Source: a virus
Taxonomy: Duplodnaviria; Heunggongvirae; Uroviricota; Caudoviricetes
IMG/VR virus record: IMGVR_UViG_2695420763_000021
Coordinates: 1 to 9,420 of that record
Length of the DNA stretch: 9,420 nt
Reading direction: 5' to 3' (one strand)
Below the pieces are notes generated by a model. That model was not told the DNA's origin and searched no databases. It was given only the letters and a program-made list of their open reading frames with translations. Position 1 is the stretch's first letter. Each line of letters opens with the position of its first letter. Positions 1-9,420 of the stretch are shown here, piece by piece. Both the position numbers and the translations under genes were made by a program.

Positions 1-1167
1 ATGAATAGAATCTATCGCGTGATATGGAATTGCACTCTACAGGTATTTCAGGCCTGCTCGGAATTAACTCGCAGGGCAGGTAAAACATCGACGGTTAATT
101 TGCGTAAATCCTCTGGACTGACAACGAAATTCAGTAGATTGACGCTGGGTGTTTTGCTGGCACTAAGCGGTTCAGCGTCTGGTGCAAGTCTGGAAGTTGA
201 TAATGATCAGATTACCAATATTGATACTGATGTTGCTTATGATGCCTACCTGGTTGGCTGGTATGGCACTGGAGTGCTTAATATTTTGGCTGGCGGTAAT
301 GCCTCCTTAACCACTATTACTACCAGCGTCATTGGCGCTAATGAGGACTCAGAGGGCACCGTTAATGTTTTGGGTGGCACCTGGCGATTGTATGATAGCG
401 GAAATAATGCAAGGCCTTTAAATGTGGGTCAATCCGGAACGGGGACGCTGAATATTAAACAGAAAGGTCACGTTGATGGAGGCTATTTAAGACTAGGTTC
501 CTCGACAGGAGGCGTCGGGACGGTCAATGTTGAGGGAGAGGACTCTGTTCTGACGACCGAATTATTCGAAATAGGGAGTTACGGTACGGGCTCATTAAAT
601 ATTACGGATAAGGGTTACGTCACGAGTTCAATAGTCGCCATTTTAGGCTATCAGGCGGGCAGTAATGGCCAGGTTGTCGTTGAAAAGGGCGGTGAGTGGC
701 TAATAAAAAATAACGATTCCTCAATTGAATTTCAAATTGGTAATCAAGGAACGGGGGAAGCGACTATTCGCGAGGGTGGACTGATTACGGCTGAAAACAC
801 GATTATCGGTGGCAATGCTACCGGTATCGGAACCCTGAATGTGCAGGATCAAGACTCTGTCATCACGGTACGCAGACTCTATAATGGATATTTCGGTAAT
901 GGCACACTCAATATTTCCAATAATGGACTAATTAATAACAAAGAATATTCATTAGTGGGCGTTCAGGACGGTTCCCACGGTGTCGTCAACGTGACCGATA
1001 AAGGGCATTGGAATTTCCTCGGAACGGGCGAAGCTTTCCGCTATATCTATATCGGTGATGCTGGCGACGGTGAACTTAATGTCTCGCGTGAAGGTAAAGT
1101 AGATTCGGGAATTATCACTGCGGGGATGAAAGAAACAGGCACAGGCAACATTACTGTTAAGGATAAG
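1..1167 (+). pseudogene. Autotransporter (type Va) adhesin, 5' fragment: extended signal peptide plus passenger-domain repeats, 3'-truncated by IS2
   Basis: ATG at 1. N-terminus MNRIYRVIWN...SELTRRAGK has the extended-signal-peptide pattern of enterobacterial autotransporters, followed by hydrophobic LTLGVLLALSGSASG and repeated GTGxLNI / GNGTLNI / GIGTLNV passenger motifs. The native frame ends at codon 389 (1165-1167) and then reads 28 codons into IS2 before the stop at 1252-1254. No beta-barrel translocator domain is present. Confidence 0.8.
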
Positions 1168-1208
1168 TGGATTTGCCCCTATATTTCCAGACATCTGTTA
1201 TCACTTAA
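1168..1208. repeat. IS2 right terminal inverted repeat (IRR)
   Basis: Imperfect inverted repeat partner of 2457-2498; begins TGGATTTGCCCC. Confidence 0.8.
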
Positions 1209-2084
1209 CCCATTACAAGCCCACTGCCGCAGATATTCCCGTGGCGAGCGATAACCCAGCGCACTATGCGGATGCCATTCGTTATAATGCTCGAACGCCT
1301 CTGCAAGGTTCTTTGCTGCCGTTAACCCGTCTGGTTTGGGCATGATACTGATGTAGTCACGCTTTATCGTTTTCACGAAGCTCTCTGCTATTCCGTTACT
1401 CTCCGGACTCCGCACCGCCGTGTTCTTCGGTTCAAGTCCCAACATCCGGGCGAACTGGCGTGTTTCATTAGCCCGGTAGCATGAACCATTATCCGTCAGC
1501 CACTCCACTGGAGACGACGGAAGATCGTTGCCGAAGCGGCGTTCCACCGCTCCCAGCATGACGTCCTGTACTGTTTCACTGTTGAAGCCGCCGGTAGTCA
1601 CCGCCCAGTGCAGTGCCTCACGATCACAGCAGTCCAGCGCGAACGTGACACGCAGTCTCTCTCCGTTATCACAGCAGAACTCGAACCCGTCAGAGCACCA
1701 TCGCTGATTGCTTTCTTTCACGGCCACTCTGCCTGTATGTGCCCGTTTCGATGGCGGTACAGTAGGTTTTCGCTCAAGCAACAGCGCATTCTGGCGCATG
1801 ATCCGGTAAACACGTTTGGCATTGATCGCAGGCATACCATCAAGTTCTGCCTGTCTGCGAAGCAGCGCCCATACCCGACGATAACCATACGTGGGCAGCT
1901 CTCCGATAACATGGTGTATACGGAGAAGCACATCCGTATCATCAGTGTGACGACTGCGGCGGCCATCCATCCAGTCATCGGTTCGTCTGAGAATGACGTA
2001 CAACTGCGCACGCGACACCCGGAGACAACGGCTGACTAAGCTTACTCCCCATCCCCGGGCAATAAGGGCGCGTGCGCTATCCAC
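1179..2084 (-). CDS. insD: IS2 transposase OrfB (InsD), DDE integrase-like catalytic domain
   Basis: 301-aa ORF inside IS2. The translation (e.g. ...[18 protein letters not shown]...[11 protein letters not shown]...[18 protein letters not shown]) matches IS2 InsD as recalled. Its 5' end overlaps orfA in the -1 frame. Confidence 0.9.
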
Positions 2085-2407
2085 TTTTTTGCCCGTCCAT
2101 ATTCAACGGCTTCTTTGAGGAGTTCATTTTCCATCGTTTTCTTGCCGAGCAGGCGCTGGAGTTCTTTAATCTGCTTCATGGCGGCAGCAAGTTCAGAGGC
2201 AGGAACAACCTGTTCTCCGGCGGCGACAGCAGTAAGACTTCCTTCCTGGTATTGCTTACGCCAGAGAAATAACTGGCTGGCTGCTACACCATGTTGCCGG
2301 GCAACGAGGGAGACCGTCATCCCCGGTTCAAAGCTCTGCTGAACAATTGCGATCTTTTCCTGTGTGGTACGCCGTCTGCGTTTCTCCGGCCCTAAGACAT
2401 CAATCAT
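2042..2407 (-). CDS. insC: IS2 transposase OrfA (InsC), HTH DNA-binding subunit
   Basis: Start placed at the internal ATG 2407..2405 ([24 protein letters not shown]...), giving 121 aa. The track ORF extends upstream to 2452 but that reads through the IRL-proximal sequence. Confidence 0.88.
2084..2090 (-). other. A6G slippery heptamer for programmed -1 ribosomal frameshift (OrfA to OrfAB fusion transposase)
   Basis: Minus strand reads AAAAAAG at 2090..2084, inside the orfA/orfB overlap and at the 5' end of the orfB frame. IS3-family elements, including IS2, use this motif. Confidence 0.6.
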
Positions 2408-2456
2408 CTGTTCTCCAATGACTAGTCTAAAAACTAGTATTAAGACTATCACTTAT

Positions 2457-2498
2457 TTAAGTGATACTGGTTGTCTGGAGATTCAGGGGGCCAGTCTA
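2457..2498. repeat. IS2 left terminal inverted repeat (IRL)
   Basis: Ends ...GGGGGCCAGTCTA at 2498; partner of 1168-1208. Confidence 0.8.
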
Positions 2499-2696
2499 AG
2501 ATTCCCCGAAACGCTTCTCCATAAATAATTCATAGGCTGCTCGTTCATCCGATACTGCTGCCAGTGATGCCTGTGCAATTTTTAATGCGGTAAGCATGTT
2601 GTTTTGATCTTCATCGAGTCCGAACGGTATTTCATCCCGTGCTGACTCAATGCTGGTAATCGTGTTCTGTAACCATTCTTTGGTAAGAGTATTCAT
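2496..2696 (-). pseudogene. Hypothetical phage early protein, probably 3'-truncated by IS2 (66 codons remain)
   Basis: ATG 2696..2694 with AAGGTGA about 9 nt upstream. The frame runs straight into IS2, and its stop codon TAG (2498..2496) is the terminal 3 nt of the IS2 IRL. The N-terminal 45 aa are paralogous to the 155-aa ORF at 2892-3359. Confidence 0.5.
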
Positions 2697-2698
2697 AA

Positions 2699-2890
2699 CT
2701 ATTTCACCTTAATCTCAACATTTCGCAGCTTTAGCTCTACTGGCAAGTCTGACTTTCCTGTTAATGCTAATGCGAGATTTTCAGGAGTAATGAGAGCAGT
2801 TATTGTTTTCCCCATCGCCAGACGAATAATCATTCGTATCTCGCGATCGTCACATGCTCCCGGTCGAACAATTGATATTTGTCCGTTCAT
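2699..2890 (-). CDS. Hypothetical small phage protein (63 aa; alternative start at 2911 gives 70 aa)
   Basis: ATG 2890..2888 is preceded by AAGGAGA at about 6 nt spacing and sits 1 nt after the stop of the upstream ORF. The stop at 2701..2699 is followed 2 nt later by the next ATG. Confidence 0.5.
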   Translation of the reverse strand: MNGQISIVRPGACDDREIRMIIRLAMGKTITALITPENLALALTGKSDLPVELKLRNVEIKVK

Positions 2891-2891
2891 C

Positions 2892-3359
2892 TCACTCTCC
2901 TTTGATGCCAATGTTTACAGCCTGACAAGCCTCTTTGAGCACCCAGTCAACAGCGTCTTTCCATGCTCCGGTTTCGACTGGCGGATTTTCACTCTTAACC
3001 TGTTCATAGAAGCGCACCGCTTTAATCAATCCTTCGGGTGTCAGTGGCACAGGCTGGGCCGTGAATAACGCCTGAATTTCATAGTTCGGCCTGTCGTTGC
3101 AATCCTCTTTTGTCGGTACATATTTCCAGTCACCAACCCACGGCTTCTCCTGAAAGTTCGTAACGCCTTTTCTCACGTAGCGATATCGCCATGTCACCGG
3201 TTCGGCTTCCAGCGATGCCAGCGCGACTTTAAATGCGGTAAGTACGTTTTTAACCACATCGATTTTGAATACTATTTCATCACATACAAACGATTTATCG
3301 TCTACTACCGTTTCAATTCCGGTAATCGTGTTTTGTAGCCATTTGGTTAATTCAGCCAT
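2892..3359 (-). CDS. Hypothetical phage early protein (155 aa) with an N-terminal module shared with ORF 2496-2696
   Basis: 155-aa ORF. N-terminus MAELTKWLQNTITGIE...ASLEA aligns with MNTLTKEWLQNTITSIE...ASLAA of the 66-aa ORF, and the DNA is also about 80 percent similar over roughly 150 bp. The C-terminal part is Trp-rich and unique. Confidence 0.65.
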   Translation of the reverse strand: MAELTKWLQNTITGIETVVDDKSFVCDEIVFKIDVVKNVLTAFKVALASLEAEPVTWRYRYVRKGVTNFQEKPWVGDWKYVPTKEDCNDRPNYEIQALFTAQPVPLTPEGLIKAVRFYEQVKSENPPVETGAWKDAVDWVLKEACQAVNIGIKGE

Positions 3360-3490
3360 TTTTCATTACCGCCCTTTCGGGCGGTCTCCTGATGTTCTGA
3401 GAGTGCAGGAATCCCTCCGGTTAAGGATTTAATAAAATTCACTTCTGATTTAAATTTTTCAGTGTTTTGTTGTCAGGTGGTTTATCGCCT

Positions 3491-3802
3491 TTATGCTTCA
3501 ACCTTATTTCTCAGCCATACACAAACCGGACCATCTTCAGTGTCATGAATGGAACCAATGAACCAGCCTTCACCTTCCGGGCGCTCCGGTTTCCAGGAGG
3601 CAATATCGGGACCATCTGCGTCCAGATTAAAATCATCTTCATCCATAGTTCTGATGGTCCATTGAAGATTATTTCCCTCCATCCATGCGTTAAACTCTTC
3701 CGTTGAAATATGTTCTCTACCATCACAGAATTTTTCATATTCAGGATGCGTCCAGCAGCCATATTCATCACGTACTACTGGTATTTCTTTAATTTCATTC
3801 AT
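3491..3802 (-). CDS. Hypothetical phage protein (103 aa), acidic, Trp-rich
   Basis: ATG 3802..3800 with GGGAGA about 7 nt upstream. Overlaps the upstream ORF's stop by 8 nt. The translation looks protein-like (MNEIKEIPVVRDEYGCWTHPEYEKF...). Confidence 0.65.
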   Translation of the reverse strand: MNEIKEIPVVRDEYGCWTHPEYEKFCDGREHISTEEFNAWMEGNNLQWTIRTMDEDDFNLDADGPDIASWKPERPEGEGWFIGSIHDTEDGPVCVWLRNKVEA

Positions 3803-4049
3803 TTCTGTTCTCCCACGTTTTCAGACTTTCACCACAGAACGGACAAAATGAAACCCGCACTGGTGATTTAGAAAATTCACCGGAACGCAACATCACCAAA
3901 TCAGGGCCGCGAGTTAAACTCTCATTCCAGATTTTGTATATCAGCAGACCTTTTCGCGCCGTGTATTCAGCATCATGCTCAAGGGATTTTGCCAGTGCTG
4001 CACATGGTTCTATCTTATTGCCATTAATTTGGCATTTTGACTCACTCAC
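3795..4049 (-). CDS. Hypothetical small protein (84 aa) with a C-terminal CPFCG motif
   Basis: GTG start 4049..4047 is preceded by a strong AAGGAGG at 6 nt spacing and overlaps the upstream stop as GTGA. The track's longer 96-aa version also begins at a GTG (4085..4083) but lacks an RBS. Cys at positions 6, 16, 68 and 71 of the 84-aa product. Confidence 0.55.
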   Translation of the reverse strand: MSESKCQINGNKIEPCAALAKSLEHDAEYTARKGLLIYKIWNESLTRGPDLVMLRSGEFSKSPVRVSFCPFCGESLKTWENRNE

Positions 4050-4285
4050 TGGTTGCCTCCTTTGCGGATCTGCGCTGCGATGCACGAAAAAAAAGACTCT
4101 CGCGTATGACTGTTAAGAGCTGGCGCGAACGCCGCGTTAAGAACGGCAGCATCACAGCCGTCATCGATATAGAGCGCAATTTTTTTCTCTAGGCGTGCTT
4201 TAGCTTCCTGCAACTGCATACCCCGGCACGCACGCGGGATATACTCAGCAATTTGAGCGATAGATTTTTCGTTCTGTTTAAACAT
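4046..4285 (-). CDS. Hypothetical small protein (79 aa)
   Basis: ATG 4285..4283 with GAGGTGA 5 nt upstream. Overlaps the upstream ORF by 8 nt (ATGTTTAA). Confidence 0.55.
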   Translation of the reverse strand: MFKQNEKSIAQIAEYIPRACRGMQLQEAKARLEKKIALYIDDGCDAAVLNAAFAPALNSHTRESFFSCIAAQIRKGGNQ

Positions 4286-4481
4286 GCTTCACCTCGATAG
4301 GCTTGATGGTATCGATCAGCAGTCGGCGGCGAGTATTTTCTGCAAAGTGGCGGCGTCCGGTTTCTTTGTGGTAAAACTCGTTTTTTCCGACGACCCACAT
4401 CCGCTTTGTCTGGTGCAGTTTTTTTACCTGCGGACCGTCTCGGGTGATAACAATTCCCGTATGAGTTTTTATCACGCTCAT
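4278..4481 (-). CDS. Hypothetical small basic protein (67 aa), in the position occupied by yfdT in CPS-53
   Basis: ATG 4481..4479 overlaps the yfdS-like stop as ATGA. Basic composition. Confidence 0.5.
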   Translation of the reverse strand: MSVIKTHTGIVITRDGPQVKKLHQTKRMWVVGKNEFYHKETGRRHFAENTRRRLLIDTIKPIEVKHV

Positions 4482-4840
4482 TTCTTATTCTCCGGTGCTT
4501 TTGGCATTACTGCCCAGTGAGTGATATTGACGTTTTCAAGGTCCCCGACCTGAAATGTCCACTGCCATTCTCCGGTTTCTTTTTGTCCCCAGGTGTACCA
4601 GAGAGAACGCCAGCCAATCAGCCAGCCTTCTCCGTTAGCATCAAATAACAGAACACTTTCATTTGCTGGCGGCAGTTCAGCTGACACTGGCATTATTTTG
4701 TTTTCCAGTGCCGCACATTTAGCTTCAAGCGCATCGAATTTACGTACCAGGTACTCAGCATTTGTTTCATTCACTTTCAGATCTCGCGGTACACATTTCC
4801 CGCGAAGAAACCCTTCCATTTCGAAAACATTCATGCGCAT
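4478..4840 (-). CDS. yfdS: YfdS-like phage protein (120 aa)
   Basis: 120-aa ORF immediately downstream of, and overlapping, the HD-domain gene. Its size and position match CPS-53 yfdS as recalled. An in-frame ATG two codons in (4834) overlaps the upstream stop as ATGA. Confidence 0.55.
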   Translation of the reverse strand: MRMNVFEMEGFLRGKCVPRDLKVNETNAEYLVRKFDALEAKCAALENKIMPVSAELPPANESVLLFDANGEGWLIGWRSLWYTWGQKETGEWQWTFQVGDLENVNITHWAVMPKAPENKK

Positions 4841-5367
4841 TTGCGTAACTCCGATAACTCGTTAAAACGTTCCATAAACATCCCGTAGGCATGGCCTGGT
4901 GACAGTGGAATAACTTTGAACATCTCTGTTGCCGGGATGCCTTCCAGTACAGGCCAGAAAGAGCCATCATCAAGCCCGAGATCGCGGCGTTCGGTTGCCA
5001 GCATAATGAGATCGGCATATTTCACTGGCGTGCTCATAACAGGAGGTAACCCGTATTTCTCACGGATTACGGCGTCTATTTTTTCTTCCATCCGTTTATA
5101 GTCAGGAAGAAGTCGTTTCAGTGGCGCGGGGATGTCCTGGCAATATGCTTCTGTTGCATCATGCATTAACGCTTCAAAAGCAAATTCCTGCGGCACCAGC
5201 TGGCTGCAAAGCACCGCATGCTGGGCGACACTGTAGAAGTGTGAAAGATGTCCTGCAAAGCGACAGATATTTGAAAGGGAAACTGCGATATCGTTAATCA
5301 CGATGTCGTCTTTATTTATCTTGTCATAATAAAAATGCTTCCCGGAAAAAGTTTTAATAAATGACAT
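4831..5367 (-). CDS. yfdR: HD-domain phosphohydrolase, YfbR/YfdR-like 5'-deoxynucleotidase family (178 aa)
   Basis: Start at ATG 5367..5365 with GGAG in GTGGAGAACGAA upstream; the track ORF begins 4 codons earlier at a GTG. Motifs H-x27-HD and DIPAPLK (SVAQHAVLCSQL...ALMHDATEAYCQDIPAPLK) are typical of HD-domain 5'-deoxynucleotidases. At 178 aa it matches CPS-53 YfdR in size and gene order. Confidence 0.75.
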   Translation of the reverse strand: MSFIKTFSGKHFYYDKINKDDIVINDIAVSLSNICRFAGHLSHFYSVAQHAVLCSQLVPQEFAFEALMHDATEAYCQDIPAPLKRLLPDYKRMEEKIDAVIREKYGLPPVMSTPVKYADLIMLATERRDLGLDDGSFWPVLEGIPATEMFKVIPLSPGHAYGMFMERFNELSELRKCA

Positions 5368-5461
5368 TTCGTTCTCCACTTTATATGCGCTGCACCGCGC
5401 TGAATTCTGCTAAAAGGAAGCTCTCACCATCCGGTGATTATTGAGTTAATTACGTTTCCAT

Positions 5462-5483
5462 AAATGCCCCCGCAGGGGCATTT
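5462..5483 (-). terminator. Perfect 9-bp stem / 4-nt loop hairpin 12 nt downstream of the yfdQ-like stop; possible partial intrinsic terminator or attenuator
   Basis: AAATGCCCC-CGCA-GGGGCATTT. On the minus-strand RNA the stem ends in UUU followed by AUGGAAA, so the U-tract is short. Confidence 0.4.
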
Positions 5484-5495
5484 GCAGTAATGAAA

Positions 5496-6320
5496 TCAGG
5501 CGGTGAAAGTACCAATAAAGGTTTCTACTTTGCTGTCTTTGAATTTCTCAACAAGCAGATCACGAAATTCGTTAGCCATTTCTTCCTGCATCGCTTCCAG
5601 CTGAATAATGCGCAGAACCAGTACAGGACGATCGCCAGTGATAATGCTGAGGCGTAATTTAAACGGACGTTCTTTCAGGCCTTCAAACGGAACGCATTTA
5701 AATTCAAATGCCACTGGCATAATGTCTTTGGTTTTCGCTTCGACAGACTCCATCAGGGAGCGTTTGCCGCTGAAGTCATTGTCTTCAAAATCAGCGGTCT
5801 GGTTTGCTTCAATTGTGATTTTACGGACTGCAGCAGCCGCTTTGGTTGCCTGAATGGTGTCACCATTAGCATCAAAGCCCACAAGGTAGTCGGCCCAGTC
5901 TTCAATCCATTCTGCCAGTGACTTCTGGGAGTTACGCTCGCCATTAACAGACAACAGAGCAGAAAACGGTGCTGTCTTTTTCAGTTTGAGGGTGGCGGTG
6001 TTATCTGCGTGACCTGGTTCATCAATAGTACCCAGGTTAAGCACACTGACGGCTCGCATATTATCGGCATCGATAAAGCAGCGGGTGCCTTCATCTGCAA
6101 GATCTTTAGAATAACGGGTAAAGTCATCGATGCTGGCAGTGGAAAGCGCACCACGGAAACGGAAGCGATTTAAATTAAATTTTTCCAGATCATGAATGCG
6201 GAAATTCTCAGGCAATGCCACAGCATCGGCACCAATCTTACTGATAATTTCATTAACACCCTGAGCAGAAATAAGGGCATGGATTTGATTAATTGCGGTT
6301 GCGTCTAAGTTCTGAGACAT
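5496..6320 (-). CDS. yfdQ: YfdQ-like phage protein (DUF2303-type, 274 aa)
   Basis: 274-aa ORF with ATG 6320..6318 and GAGGA 7 nt upstream. Its size and position (between the yfdP-like and HD-domain genes) match CPS-53 yfdQ as recalled. Confidence 0.65.
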
Positions 6321-6385
6321 AATAAGTCCTCACTATATAAAGATATTCAGTGATGAGATAAATAATCAGTTAATTAAGAACGATA

Positions 6386-6748
6386 TTAATGACCTGCTGC
6401 GCGGAGTTTTCCGTCAGGTTCACCGGCAAGAGTCAGTAATTGTCCCTGGTCTTCCTGCAGAATAGTCAGGCGACCACCGCGATTGACATACATCGGCGTT
6501 TCGGTGGTGTCTTCTTCGGAAATTTTCCCGCGGTTAGTCGGGCGAACATATGAGAGTTTGTGTTTTATTTTCACACGGTTCTCATCAAACGGTTCGATTT
6601 CCAGGTTGAGCGAGACCTTACCTTTGGTTTTCGTGTTCATCACACCGGAAGCGACTTCACTGAGAACTGCGCCGATTTTGGTTTCAAATACGCCGCCGTC
6701 CAGCTCCCCGATAAATGCCTGCACATCAGTACTGCGTTCGCTAGCCAT
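6386..6748 (-). CDS. yfdP: YfdP-like phage protein (121 aa), first gene of the pL operon
   Basis: Start chosen at ATG 6748..6746 (MASERSTDVQAF...) because AGGAG lies 7 nt upstream. The track's 182-aa version starts at an upstream GTG, and the extra N-terminal 62 codons are Cys/Arg/Pro-rich and look non-coding. Confidence 0.55.
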   Translation of the reverse strand: MASERSTDVQAFIGELDGGVFETKIGAVLSEVASGVMNTKTKGKVSLNLEIEPFDENRVKIKHKLSYVRPTNRGKISEEDTTETPMYVNRGGRLTILQEDQGQLLTLAGEPDGKLRAAGH

Positions 6749-6796
6749 TTTGCTGCTCCTCATCATATCGACCCTGCAAGGTCGGTTAGTTTCTCC

Positions 6797-6895
6797 ACAA
6801 AACAGAGAAGAACACCTGCGGTGGCAGCCGCCCGGATGGATTGGGTTATGAGCCCGTCGTCCGGTGATGCTCTTCTCTGTTTTGTAAAAAGAGCG
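6797..6895 (-). promoter_or_regulatory. Structured element in the pL leader: boxA-like CGCTCTTTTTA followed directly by a 15-bp perfect inverted repeat with a 59-nt loop
   Basis: Minus strand reads CGCTCTTTTTA at 6895..6885. Stem arms are 6871-6885 (TCTTCTCTGTTTTGT) and 6797-6811 (ACAAAACAGAGAAGA), exact reverse complements. A second 10-bp inverted repeat (6893-6902 / 6922-6931) lies just upstream. Confidence 0.35.
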
Positions 6896-7089
6896 GTACC
6901 AGCCGGAAGCAAGTGTACAAACTGGTACCGCCAAAGCAGTGGCTGTTGTGGTGACCGGTGCTGATCTCCGGCTTGCGGTTATTTCAGACTCTCACGGGCG
7001 TTTAATTGCCCCGCCGAACAGCTCTTTTCCGCAATAGCTGCAATGTCTTTCGCGCATCAGCCTGCGCATTCACCACAACTCTAAAAACA

Positions 7090-7119
7090 AATGTAGGATA
7101 TCCAACATGTAAGTGTCAA
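7090..7119 (-). promoter_or_regulatory. pL-like early-left promoter (-35 TTGACA 7119..7114, 18-nt spacer, -10 TACATT 7095..7090)
   Basis: Minus strand reads TTGACActtacatgttggatatccTACATT, nearly identical to the pR module at 7894-7923. The -10 is embedded in operator OL-a. Confidence 0.6.
7091..7108. promoter_or_regulatory. Repressor operator OL-a (18-bp palindrome ATGTAGGATATCCAACAT)
   Basis: Exact reverse complement of OR-c (7905-7922). Half-site consensus ATGTWGGAT. Overlaps the pL -10. Confidence 0.65.
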
Positions 7120-7125
7120 GAGTTT

Positions 7126-7143
7126 ATGTTGGTTATCCTACAT
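7126..7143. promoter_or_regulatory. Repressor operator OL-b (ATGTTGGTTATCCTACAT)
   Basis: 17 of 18 matches to the operator consensus; lies just upstream of the pL -35. Confidence 0.6.
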
Positions 7144-7160
7144 AAAAAGATAGGCTCATA

Positions 7161-7185
7161 AAAAAACCGGGGATACCCCGGTTTT
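7161..7185 (-). terminator. Rho-independent terminator downstream of the repressor gene (bidirectional hairpin)
   Basis: AAAAAA-CCGGGG-ATA-CCCCGG-TTTT. On the minus strand a GC stem is followed by UUUUUU, 20 nt after the repressor stop and before OL/pL. Confidence 0.7.
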
Positions 7186-7205
7186 GCGATAGTGAGGAAG
7201 ATGTG

Positions 7206-7859
7206 TCAAAAATCCATTATTACTTGTTTGACAAGACCAACTATTCTGCAGTTTTCACCGCATTCAATAGTTTTATAGTTAGGATTTAGTGGGACGAGAT
7301 ACCTGTTCGGCCAGTCCTCAACAAATTTTTTGAGTGTCGCTTCTTGCCCACCATTGATATGGGCAACAACGATTTTTCCGTTAATACACTCTGTATCAAT
7401 AATATCTGGCTCTACGATAACGATAGAACCTTCTGGTATCGATGGTGAGCCGAGGGGATTGGTCATTGAATCACCACGGACCCGTAGTGCAAATGCCATT
7501 TCTGATACAAGGGCGGTAGTATAAACCCACTCTTCAGCATCTTCTTTCCTGACACCAGGCTCCGTCATTGTCCATGAACCCGCCTGAACCCACGAGATGA
7601 GGGGGACTTTTTTAACTGCGAATATTTCAGGTTTTAGATTTATCTTTGGTTCAGGCGAGCCTTTTCCGCTAACAAGCCACAGAGGATCGCATTTAAGTGC
7701 GTTGGCTAGGGCTTGAAGGTTGGCTCCATTTGGTTGGTAGTCGTCCTTTTCCCATCCAGTAACCGTGACACGGTTCACACCAGTCAAATCAGCCAGTGCT
7801 TGTTGTGTCAGGTTCAGTTCTTTTCGCCTTTGGCGAATACGATCACTCATGTTCATCAT
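7206..7859 (-). CDS. CI-type prophage repressor: N-terminal HTH (XRE family) plus C-terminal S24 LexA-like autopeptidase
   Basis: 217 aa. HTH segment LTQQALADLTGVNRVTVTGWE. Ala-Gly cleavage-site context VQAG (as in lambda CI). Catalytic Ser in RVRGDSM and Lys in ATLKKF. The start ATG lies within operator OR-a, so the transcript is leaderless or nearly so, as for lambda pRM. Confidence 0.85.
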   Translation of the reverse strand: MMNMSDRIRQRRKELNLTQQALADLTGVNRVTVTGWEKDDYQPNGANLQALANALKCDPLWLVSGKGSPEPKINLKPEIFAVKKVPLISWVQAGSWTMTEPGVRKEDAEEWVYTTALVSEMAFALRVRGDSMTNPLGSPSIPEGSIVIVEPDIIDTECINGKIVVAHINGGQEATLKKFVEDWPNRYLVPLNPNYKTIECGENCRIVGLVKQVIMDF

Positions 7860-7875
7860 GTAGGCAATCCTACCA
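7858..7875. promoter_or_regulatory. Repressor operator OR-a (ATGTAGGCAATCCTACCA), overlapping the repressor start codon
   Basis: 15 of 18 matches to the palindromic consensus. Confidence 0.5.
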
Positions 7876-7882
7876 CATGCTC

Positions 7883-7900
7883 ATGTAGGATTCTTGACAT
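7883..7900. promoter_or_regulatory. Repressor operator OR-b (ATGTAGGATTCTTGACAT), overlapping the pR -35
   Basis: Perfect left half-site ATGTAGGAT; the right half is degenerate and contains TTGACA. Confidence 0.5.
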
Positions 7901-7923
7901 TGGCATGTTGGATATCCTACATT
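7894..7923 (+). promoter_or_regulatory. pR-like early-right promoter (-35 TTGACA 7894-7899, 18-nt spacer, -10 TACATT 7918-7923)
   Basis: Consensus -35, 18-bp spacer, 4 of 6 match in the -10. Lies about 30 nt upstream of the cro-like gene, whose RBS is GGGAGA at 7944-7949. Confidence 0.6.
7905..7922. promoter_or_regulatory. Repressor operator OR-c (ATGTTGGATATCCTACAT), overlapping the pR -10
   Basis: Perfect 18-bp palindrome-type site; reverse complement of OL-a. Confidence 0.65.
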
Positions 7924-7954
7924 TCTGCTTAACGTAATTTAACGGGAGACAGAA

Positions 7955-8152
7955 ATGCGGAAATCCGACGTGATTAATTATTTCGGCGGAGTTTGTAAAA
8001 CCGCCGAAGCCCTAGGTATTAAGCATCCGTCTGTTTCAGAGTGGCCTGAGATTATTCCTGAAGGCCGAGCGTACCAGTTAGAAAAAATTACTAACGGGAA
8101 ACTGAAAGTTGACGTGTCTTTATATCAAAAGACTAACAGTGCTGCGGCATAA
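7955..8152 (+). CDS. Cro-like HTH regulator (65 aa)
   Basis: First gene after pR and divergent from the repressor. INYFGG...KTAEALGIKHPSVSEW resembles lambda Cro ([25 protein letters not shown]). Confidence 0.75.
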   Translation: MRKSDVINYFGGVCKTAEALGIKHPSVSEWPEIIPEGRAYQLEKITNGKLKVDVSLYQKTNSAAA

Positions 8153-8179
8153 AAACACCACAGAAATGAGGAATTAACC

Positions 8180-8764
8180 GTGGGTAAAGAACCTGAATGG
8201 AAAGTTGATAAACAACCAGCATGGCTGGTGGCAGCAATACGAAGAACGATTGCTGATTTACCTCATGGCTATGAGGAAGCAGCAGAAATTCTTGGTTTGT
8301 ATAAATCTGATGATATCACCCCAGCAAAAGATCAATTGCATAACAGACTGCGTAGCGGTGGGGATCAAATTTTTCCACTTGAGTGGGCCATGGTTTTACA
8401 GGATGCCAGTGGTACCAGGCATGTAACAGATGCAATAGCCCGTCGTAGTAATGGGGTGTTTGTGCCGCTGGTGGTCATTGATGACATTGACAATGGTGAC
8501 ATTAATCAGCGGCTGATGGAGTCAATAGAATGGATTGGCAAGCATTCCCAGTACTTACGCAAGGCAACTGCTGATGGAGTTATTGACCAGGCTGAGCGTG
8601 AGCAAATCGAAGAGAACAGCTACCAAGTAATGGCGAAGTGGCAGGAGCATTTAACACTGTTATTTCGTGTTTTTTGTGCGCCGGAAAAGAGTAACGCCCG
8701 CGAGTGTGCAGCTCCGGGCGTCGTGGCGTCGATTGCTTCTGGTTGTGGAGAAACTAACGCATGA
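8180..8764 (+). CDS. CII-like phage regulatory protein (194 aa; possibly the phage CII/CP76-type family)
   Basis: GTG start 8180 with GAGGA 7 nt upstream. It sits directly after cro as cII does in lambdoid phages. The family assignment is from memory of CP76-type CII proteins, not a verified alignment. Confidence 0.5.
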
Positions 8765-9099
8765 ACAGTTTAACAACACACTACCGTCGCTCGCAACTGA
8801 TTGCGCTTCCTGTACCGGGTGGAAAAGCGAAGGTGGAGTATTGCTATGCAGTGAATGTACCAGGTGACAGGGAAATTGTAACCCACAGATTTGCAGAGTG
8901 GGCTGTGGGTGATTTCAACCGGCAGAAGGAGACAGTCCTTTGCAACAAGTTAACCGCTGGTTCAAAGATCACTACGGAGTGCCCGTCAGAGTCATTCGTT
9001 GGGAACCGGAAACACAACGGGTTATCTACCTCCGCGAAGGCTATGAGCATGAGTGCTTCAGTCCGCTCGAACAGTTTCGTCGTAAATTCAGGGAAATAG
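8761..9099 (+). CDS. Hypothetical protein (112 aa as called); the C-terminal half looks out of frame, so a frameshift is possible
   Basis: ATG 8761 overlaps the cII-like stop as ATGA. The first 55 to 60 residues look protein-like. The remainder ([53 protein letters not shown]) is Ser-rich and low-complexity, while the -1 frame over the same DNA reads as a well-formed peptide. Confidence 0.4.
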
Positions 9100-9119
9100 A
9101 GGTCGGTCATGAGCACTAA
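8940..9119 (+). CDS. Candidate small protein (59 aa) in the alternative frame, TTG start
   Basis: AAGGAGA at 8926-8932 lies 7 nt before TTG 8940. The translation (M)[58 protein letters not shown] is protein-like. Its stop TAA 9117-9119 overlaps the downstream ATG at 9109. Confidence 0.3.
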
Positions 9120-9420
9120 ATTAACCGGCTATGTATGGGATGGTTGCGCAGCGTCAGGCATGAAATTATCCAGCGTGGCAATTATGGCCCGCCTGGCTGA
9201 TTTCAGTAATGACGAAGGTGTGTGCTGGCCATCAATTGAAACCATTGCCCGCCAGATTGGCGCGGGGATGAGTACCGTCAGAACGGCTATCGCACGGCTG
9301 GAAGCAGAAGGCTGGTTAACGCGTAAGGCGCGTCGCCATGGCAACCGCAATGCGTCGAATGTTTATCAGCTTAACGTTGCGAAGCTTCAGGCAGCGGCAT
9401 TTTCTCAACTGTCAGATTCT
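9109..9420 (+). CDS. Phage replication-initiation protein (O-like, N-terminal HTH DNA-binding domain), 5' partial; continues beyond the window
   Basis: ATG 9109 with GAGG 8 nt upstream; the frame is open to the end of the window (104 codons). [73 protein letters not shown] is typical of the HTH replication-protein N-domain found after cII in lambdoid prophages. Confidence 0.65.
   Translation, partial: MSTKLTGYVWDGCAASGMKLSSVAIMARLADFSNDEGVCWPSIETIARQIGAGMSTVRTAIARLEAEGWLTRKARRHGNRNASNVYQLNVAKLQAAAFSQLSDS

Follow-up and report, generated by a model that had tools for sequence, protein, structure and literature searches.

How many proteins does a phage make from a short piece of DNA when two long frames run through it on the same strand? 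The question is raised by an e14-like lambdoid prophage of Escherichia coli whose immunity/replication region is carried in a stretch of 9,420 nucleotides (nt) that spans positions 1 to 9,420 of the IMG/VR record IMGVR_UViG_2695420763_000021 (Caudoviricetes) and that we refer to as the window. Between the regulator gene ymfL and a replication-initiation gene lies an open reading frame (ORF) of 112 amino acids (aa), the counterpart of ymfM (b1148) of E. coli K-12 (8761-9099, plus strand; ATG at 8761, TAG at 9097-9099), and the -1 frame is open over part of the same DNA, from 8913 to 9119, with a TTG at 8940 and AAGGAGA upstream of it. An earlier account based on the letters of the window (the sequence-only reading) had given these coordinates, which proved exact, and had offered two explanations: an ancestral gene of about 118 aa that had been frameshifted or suffered an indel error, or two genuinely overlapping genes. 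The second explanation is the one borne out by our data: these are two separately initiated genes in different frames, and neither a frameshifted gene nor a sequencing error. What then calls for explanation is the last part of ymfM, which lies out of frame across the whole of the second gene and yet stays open.

The two frames and the selection acting on them

The alternative frame encodes a complete DUF4222 domain (Pfam PF13973; E=1.8e-19, 69.5 bits versus a cut-off of 27, covering positions 1-52 of the 53 in the hidden Markov model). The gene occupies 8940-9119 on the plus strand (TTG start, TAA at 9117-9119), and its 59-aa product also matches PHROGs family phrog_1343 (E=8.6e-35) and is annotated by the Prokaryotic Genome Annotation Pipeline (PGAP) as WP_001188051.1. 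The Shine-Dalgarno (SD) motif AAGGAGA, assigned from the sequence at 8926-8932 (plus strand), places GGAG 8 nt from the TTG. In alignments with 9 other lineages the TTG falls on an ATG or GTG start, and SD-like motifs were found no more than 20 nt 5' of the start in 16 of the 17 lineages checked, mostly at -8 to -14. Relatives are mostly 59-70 aa long, and DUF4222 here is a stand-alone small protein with its own start signals. We counted 138 related DUF4222 protein clusters in Enterobacterales, and the genes are also found behind unrelated genes. AlphaFold2 (AF2) predicts four strands and a helix in an SH3/Tudor-like barrel, with a predicted local distance difference test score (pLDDT) of 83.5. 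The Tudor/CarD-like character of this fold hints that the protein may bind RNA polymerase.

Two further observations concern this gene. DUF4222 carries a premature stop in E. coli Iso00041 (locus L003, 2698-2856; at a Trp codon) and in a viral contig (L025; after 6 codons); in both, the ymfM frame is still intact at 111-112 aa, and PGAP annotates the truncated DUF4222 in the former. At 8925-8942 a hairpin could pair the DUF4222 SD (GAAGGA) with UCCUUU at the TTG start, although the fold is not significant (z = -1.33); such a hairpin could make DUF4222 initiation depend on ribosomes translating ymfM.

In the other frame, the 112-aa ORF belongs to YmfM and to PHROGs family phrog_1170 (E=5e-69), as it matches K-12 b1148 both over its full length and in its place in the genome: the K-12 e14 DNA is ~98% identical over this stretch, and its ymfM ORF is likewise 112 aa and likewise lies between ymfL and the replication gene. 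Homologues of the ORF are 111-117 aa long, with identity down to 47%, and no Pfam or NCBIfam family covers it. PHROGs holds separate families for a 63-aa N-terminal module (N-module), the 112-aa form and DUF4222. The N-module, about 59 codons at 8761-8939 (plus strand) in the window, exists in other phages as a stand-alone gene of 58-68 aa, and these short forms are diverse. For the N-module AF2 predicts three strands and two helices (pLDDT 55-72), for the tail disorder (pLDDT <50) and for YmfM as a whole a weak model (mean pLDDT 53.7); a profile search of PDB sequences with YmfM gave no match. The Ser-rich C-terminal half remarked on in the sequence-only reading is there, in the form of a Ser/Thr-rich second half; among diverged lineages the tail keeps a length of ~52-56 residues, and a Ser/Thr/Gly/Ala-rich composition recurs. 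Truncated YmfM clusters in the protein database derive from contig ends, insertion/deletion junctions or frameshifts, with no simple nonsense alleles among them. Separately, YmfM residues 19-50 (8815-8910) match a unit repeated 4-13 times in proteins of 500-1700 aa, such as LPVGGGDVTYCYAVDNTGDVTL in database protein P0233, which hints at a beta-hairpin motif common to both or at a likeness in composition.

Selection was assessed in each frame at two depths. The population sample comprised 163 E. coli-type loci in 88 haplotypes, and because these were picked through the N-module they carry a bias where the upstream part is concerned. An N-module query run against viral and metagenome collections yielded 160 near-identical E. 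coli-type loci, which were of use as a population sample but brought no diversity, and a scan of species-representative genomes with an N-module alignment yielded only 7 loci; diversity came instead from protein-to-contig look-ups, tblastn against phages and a DUF4222 alignment led by a Morganella sequence. Across the 88 haplotypes, the upstream part (8761-8939) carries 22 synonymous versus 1 non-synonymous variants in the ymfM frame. In the overlap (8940-9096, plus strand, ymfM codons 61-112, where the tail occupies the +1 frame of DUF4222), the DUF4222 frame carries 26 synonymous and 15 non-synonymous variants, with a ratio of non-synonymous to synonymous polymorphism (pN/pS) of 0.14, and the ymfM frame 5 synonymous and 36 non-synonymous (pN/pS 2.2). 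A second N-module family, sampled through DUF4222 and in that respect unbiased, gave a pN/pS of 0.24, with 7, 6 and 20 variable sites at codon positions 1, 2 and 3.

The same picture emerges between diverged lineages. For the N-module the corresponding ratio of substitution rates (dN/dS) is 0.11-0.55, mostly 0.2-0.4, in the ymfM frame and mostly about 1 in the other two frames, at a dS of 0.4-1.5 except in two closely related pairs. In the overlap dN/dS is 0.02-0.5 in the DUF4222 frame, with synonymous sites saturated, and about 1 to 10 in the ymfM frame. Purifying selection on both frames of the overlap, the mark of an overprinted pair that is truly dual-coding, was not found. Judged by these variant counts and per-frame ratios, selection acts on the protein encoded by the first ~59 codons of ymfM and on DUF4222 over its entire length, and the ymfM tail is free of sequence constraint; the saturation of DUF4222 synonymous sites is what allows this to be said of the tail at the amino-acid level.

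These results can be set against what the databases hold, where no annotation listing both ymfM and DUF4222 was found among the records examined. RefSeq annotates K-12 b1148 at this place as 'cell division inhibitor YmfM', and the records of Shigella phage SfII and phage SKA5 give the 112-aa ORF only. This practice implies that ymfM is the only gene and that the second frame is open by accident, a view that we find scarcely credible: it is already contradicted by a Pfam DUF4222 match far above threshold, by the conserved start codon and SD, by a confident AF2 fold, by the many related clusters and the other genomic contexts in which DUF4222 genes occur, and by the fact that within the overlap the DUF4222 frame alone is constrained in its amino acids. 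Proteins that match the 112-aa frame from end to end, which the sequence-only reading would have held against a second gene had they stood alone, do exist, but well over 100 DUF4222 proteins match the other frame.

The opposite choice is made for Pantoea phage AH07, whose record gives DUF4222 only, and by PGAP, which in about 2,000 complete E. coli genomes, K-12 derivatives included, lists 'YmfL', 'DUF4222 domain-containing protein' and 'HTH protein' (helix-turn-helix) in succession, with no ymfM. That DUF4222 alone is a gene, that the 112-aa ORF is spurious and that 8761-8939 is a non-coding spacer is what this usage implies, in thousands of E. coli genomes, and the lack of any Pfam or NCBIfam family for the ORF agrees with it. 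We nevertheless judge it quite improbable, since the strong ymfM-frame coding signature 5' of the overlap, as measured by dN/dS, already contradicts it, since nearly all lineages checked have an (A/G)TGA start on the ymfL stop, and since the module is an annotated stand-alone gene with a PHROGs family in other phages. The sequence-only reading's notion of two genuinely overlapping genes is in this sense upheld: the alternative frame is a complete DUF4222 domain, and the 5' part of ymfM is independently conserved coding sequence.

This leaves the possibility of a single gene, either an ancestral fusion of about 118 aa broken by a frameshift or a sequencing indel, or one expressed as a fusion through programmed -1 frameshifting. 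The two frames do differ by -1, and fused database proteins of 102-119 aa exist (P0031, P0054, P0060 and P0065). The fusions are rare, however, their join points differ, each comes from a single assembly and one requires two frame changes, as would fit sporadic mutations or assembly errors, and the unfused two-frame arrangement is present in about 2,000 E. coli genomes. Moreover, this is not a broken gene because the two modules occur independently. Providencia phage PSTRCR_117lys and Hafnia phage yong2 have only a module of 59-63 aa with a 4-nt overlap with the next gene, which in the Providencia phage is the replication gene; Atlantibacter and Entomohabitans loci have kept the module and largely deleted DUF4222; and Morganella-type prophages have the N-module, ATGA, an intact DUF4222, ATGA and the replication gene in order, with a stop between the two genes in the first ATGA overlap. 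Programmed frameshifting finds no better footing. As the sequence-only reading had noted, there is no slippery heptamer of the form X_XXY_YYZ (none in the ymfM frame over 8899-8960), and the fold of 8900-8990 offers no significant stimulatory RNA structure (z = -1.33; 25 of 200 shuffles fold as well); Rfam gave no match either. A single gene would also leave unexplained why the ymfM frame is open to the end of DUF4222, and we consider it very improbable.

The stop-free frame of the tail

If the tail has no constraint on its residues, how often would its frame be open by chance? As a background we sampled 1,632 windows, each 53 codons long, in 396 long ORFs belonging to the same loci; the +1 frame was open in 6.4% of them and the +2 frame in 1.5%, and the double open frame therefore exceeds chance. 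A stricter expectation was obtained by an exact dynamic-programming calculation of P(open), in which the DUF4222 protein is held fixed and its synonymous codons are drawn at random. At this locus the probability of an open +1 frame is about 0.08. Eighteen representative lineages have an open +1 frame. It is open in all 13 lineages that have an N-module upstream and stand more than 15% apart in their DUF4222 protein, a set that covers three N-module types; the probability of its being open to the extent seen is 0.03-0.25 per lineage, and the sum of log10 P over the 13 is about -14 if the lineages are independent.

The choice of codons bears a signature of this. At stop-prone junctions, where a Val, Leu or Ile codon of DUF4222 is followed by a codon beginning with A, the third position in open-frame lineages is a purine in 0 cases and a pyrimidine in 54 (27 C, 27 T), versus 27 purines and 44 pyrimidines at safe junctions, where the next codon begins with C or T (Fisher p = 1.8e-8). 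In lineages without a read-in ORF the stop-prone junctions have 6 purines and 1 pyrimidine, and the +1 frame contains 3-4 stops; the +2 frame contains 1-7 stops everywhere. The stop that ends the ymfM frame is itself made by an A-ending Ile, Leu or Val codon of DUF4222 (ATA, TTA or GTA), at that single place, and A- and G-ending codons are avoided at all stop-prone junctions that come earlier. As far as codon choice across lineages can show it, stops are strongly avoided in the tail frame.

Junctions of the operon and a possible ribosome relay

The ends of the frame are regular too. The TGA of ymfL (8762-8764) overlaps the ymfM ATG as ATGA, and an (A/G)TGA junction stands at the start of the N-module in 15 of the 16 loci checked. 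At the other end, every lineage with an N-module has its ymfM-frame stop at -12, -9, -6 or +8 counted from the ATG of the downstream gene, and this gene is of at least 5 types; the DUF4222 stop is spread more widely, from +1 to +44. In the window the ymfM stop is at -12: TAG at 9097-9099 adjoins the replication gene's SD (GAGG at 9099-9102), the two together spanning 9097-9102 on the plus strand, and lies 12 nt 5' of the ATG at 9109. The DUF4222 stop is at +8, the TAA falling 8 nt inside the replication gene with an 11-nt overlap, in agreement with the sequence-only reading, which had noted that this stop overlaps the start of the replication gene. RNA structure at the replication gene's ribosome-binding site is not significant (z = +0.66). 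Both in the window and across lineages, every junction has a stop within a few nt of the next start, as expected of a coupled chain, and stop/start junctions run unbroken from ymfL to the replication gene in all arrangements seen: the module alone, the module followed by ATGA, DUF4222 and ATGA, and the module reading through DUF4222.

Based on these unbroken junctions and the fixed position of the stop, we propose that the tail would serve as a coupling bridge across an inserted DUF4222. The ymfM product would be a small folded domain of ~55-60 residues, started at the ATGA overlap with ymfL, and its last ~52 codons would give an unconstrained, disordered tail in the +1 frame of DUF4222. The latter, with its own SD and TTG, would sit inside a translationally coupled chain leading from ymfL through ymfM to the replication gene, and the ymfM frame would have been selected to stay open and thereby pass ribosomes from ymfL and ymfM on to the ribosome-binding site of the replication gene. 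Translation in this frame would also keep the mRNA covered against polarity, and selection would not be on any action of the tail as protein. Both the coupling and the polarity role are mechanisms that we infer from sequence comparison. Two separate genes, with the tail a by-product kept open for coupling to the replication gene, make up what we believe to be the best explanation, and one whose prospects of being correct we rate slightly above even. Going one step further, the tail may be regarded as a 'bridge ORF', selected for being translated, that lets DUF4222 nest in a coupled operon without breaking the relay, with the corollary that SfiC, the division inhibitor equated with YmfM (see below), may be the ~60-aa N-domain or DUF4222 and not the 112-aa YmfM; this fuller version is offered tentatively, its chances falling somewhat short of even.

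The chief competitor to this explanation holds that YmfM works as a 112-aa protein whose disordered, Ser/Thr-rich tail is required (e.g. for stability, targeting or division inhibition), where any such composition suffices and only stops are selected against. It can point to stop avoidance that spans the whole tail, to a tail length and composition that recur in diverged lineages, to a depletion of G-ending codons even where merely a Trp would arise in the tail, and to a published phenotype that came from the full ORF. On the other hand, phages without DUF4222 have a tailless module (58-68 aa), the tail is as long as DUF4222 and its end tracks the start of the next gene and no protein feature, its composition is largely forced by the DUF4222 codons, and, as the saturation of DUF4222 synonymous sites indicates, it shows no amino-acid constraint. 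We consider a working tail unlikely, though by a long way the most serious of the competing accounts.

Several points weigh against the relay as we have drawn it. Coupling through the ymfM frame looks redundant, given that DUF4222, too, has its stop right at the start of the replication gene, and our literature searches yielded neither ribosome profiling nor mass spectrometry in support of the production of either protein. Independence of the lineages is assumed in the Fisher test as well as in the product of probabilities, without a phylogenetic model, although the saturated dS supports it. Within E. coli, 0 of 26 variants create a stop versus 9.8% expected, which is not significant (P=0.07) in a comparison that is underpowered, all such changes being transversions. 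G is also rare at harmless junctions (1 of 44 where the next codon begins with G), for which stop avoidance alone is no explanation. Finally, four loci (L199, L202, L208 and L248) have an open +1 frame without a recognisable N-module reading in through it; their open frames may be relics, or stops may be avoided for another cause.

These four loci deserve a closer description. In L208, L248 and L199 (at about 690-1080) the N-module stands in another frame relative to DUF4222 or ends at the DUF4222 start, and the +1 frame is open (P = 0.007-0.07), which may be the relic of a recent frame change or have a cause other than read-in. In L202 (761-1102) an ORF of 113 aa with an unrelated N-terminal part crosses DUF4222 in the +1 frame and extends by 35 nt into the gene that follows, which may be due to chance or represent an analogous arrangement.

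Comparison with known arrangements helps to place the locus. It resembles ATGA-type coupled phage operons in the ATGA of ymfL and ymfM, in the DUF4222 stop that lies over the start of the replication gene and in the ATGA found at every junction in relatives; genes in such operons overlap by 1-4 nt, whereas in our locus ymfM is linked to the replication gene by a 160-nt out-of-frame overlap that spans a whole intervening gene. Long out-of-frame overlaps are familiar from lambda Rz/Rz1 and from phiX174, where both products are functional proteins with constraints of their own. The present case is like these in having two same-strand frames over more than 150 nt, and unlike them in that one of the frames is without amino-acid constraint and is held only to the avoidance of stops.

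Gene neighbourhood, relatives and the identity of SfiC

The surrounding genes are those of a lambdoid immunity/replication region. A cI-like S24 repressor gene lies on the minus strand (7206-7859), followed by cro (7955-8152) and by ymfL (8180-8764, plus strand), which encodes a CII/CP76-like regulator (NCBIfam NF041471 YmfL, E=8e-54; Pfam Phage_CP76). A candidate PR-like sigma-70 promoter, identified by consensus match only, is located 5' of cro (7894-7923, plus strand; TTGACA-18-TACATT, 10 of 12 matches) and probably drives a rightward operon of cro, ymfL, ymfM/DUF4222 and the replication gene. The last of these, of which the window holds the 5' part (9109-9420, plus strand) and which continues past the window end, is HTH_36/DnaD-N-like (Pfam HTH_36, E=5.9e-12; DnaD_N), and homologous phage records name it 'primosomal protein' or 'replication protein O'. 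Near the ymfM/DUF4222 overlap there is no site that resembles a promoter, and the lone plus-strand terminator-like match nearby, a weak match to the consensus, falls inside ymfL (8717-8730). An antisense ORF of 90 aa (8844-9116, minus strand) is also open across the overlap, such that three long ORFs share the same DNA; no Pfam family matches it, and it is probably a by-product of the plus-strand codon pattern.

At the far end of the window (1-2452), an autotransporter-like ORF runs from base 1; its signal peptide is of the extended type (ESPR, E=1.9e-15). At the 3' end this ORF and a minus-strand insertion sequence of the IS3 family (orfA 2042-2452, orfB 1179-2084) overlap, and the adhesin gene therefore seems to have been cut by the element.

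Each of the two small genes had been known separately, and what appears to be new is their overlap, a frame selected only to stay open, and the ambiguity over the SfiC product that follows below. Our literature searches found no report of the ymfM/DUF4222 overlap (ymfM papers that mention 'overlapping' concern other matters), no study combining ymfM with ribosome profiling, and no functional data on DUF4222 beyond RgdR (ECs1581). RgdR is a prophage-encoded DUF4222 regulator of the type III secretion system of the enterocyte effacement locus (LEE) and of motility in enterohaemorrhagic E. coli O157:H7; it is 99 aa long, activates LEE1, represses motility and binds DNA weakly and non-specifically (PMC3378721; PMC10877973). 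The window protein shares with RgdR the DUF4222 domain, a small and basic make-up and a prophage origin. It is not of the RgdR type as defined by a length of ~99 aa and an RGD motif: in RgdR, which is encoded on a P4-like island, the RGD motif is important for activity, whereas the window protein has 59 aa, no RGD and a place in an immunity/replication operon.

YmfM itself was identified as the SOS-inducible division inhibitor SfiC of the K-12 e14 prophage through expression of the ORF from pBAD24 and through deletion, and expression of the cloned K-12 ymfM ORF was reported to inhibit FtsZ-ring formation; the original ymfM library clone held both genes whole (Ansari et al., bioRxiv 10.1101/2020.11.19.390815). 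In that work K-12 YmfM is treated as one protein, whereas by our analysis selection as a protein is apparent only for its first ~59 codons. Provided that the primers coincided with the ends of the ORF, a ymfM clone would carry the SD and TTG of DUF4222 along with 53 of its 59 codons, which make up the entire predicted fold. The published overexpression and deletion would each affect DUF4222 too, which makes the SfiC product ambiguous: the filamentation phenotype in the literature may be due to the N-terminal domain, the complete 112-aa protein or DUF4222.

The attribution of SfiC, a question now 35 years old, rests on a clone and a deletion, and in both of them DUF4222, which is related to the virulence regulator RgdR, is implicated too. 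More broadly, a frame conserved only as stop-free at saturated synonymous divergence would be an unusually clean case of selection on translation and not on protein sequence, and the arrangement may illustrate a way in which small genes enter the coupled operons of phages.

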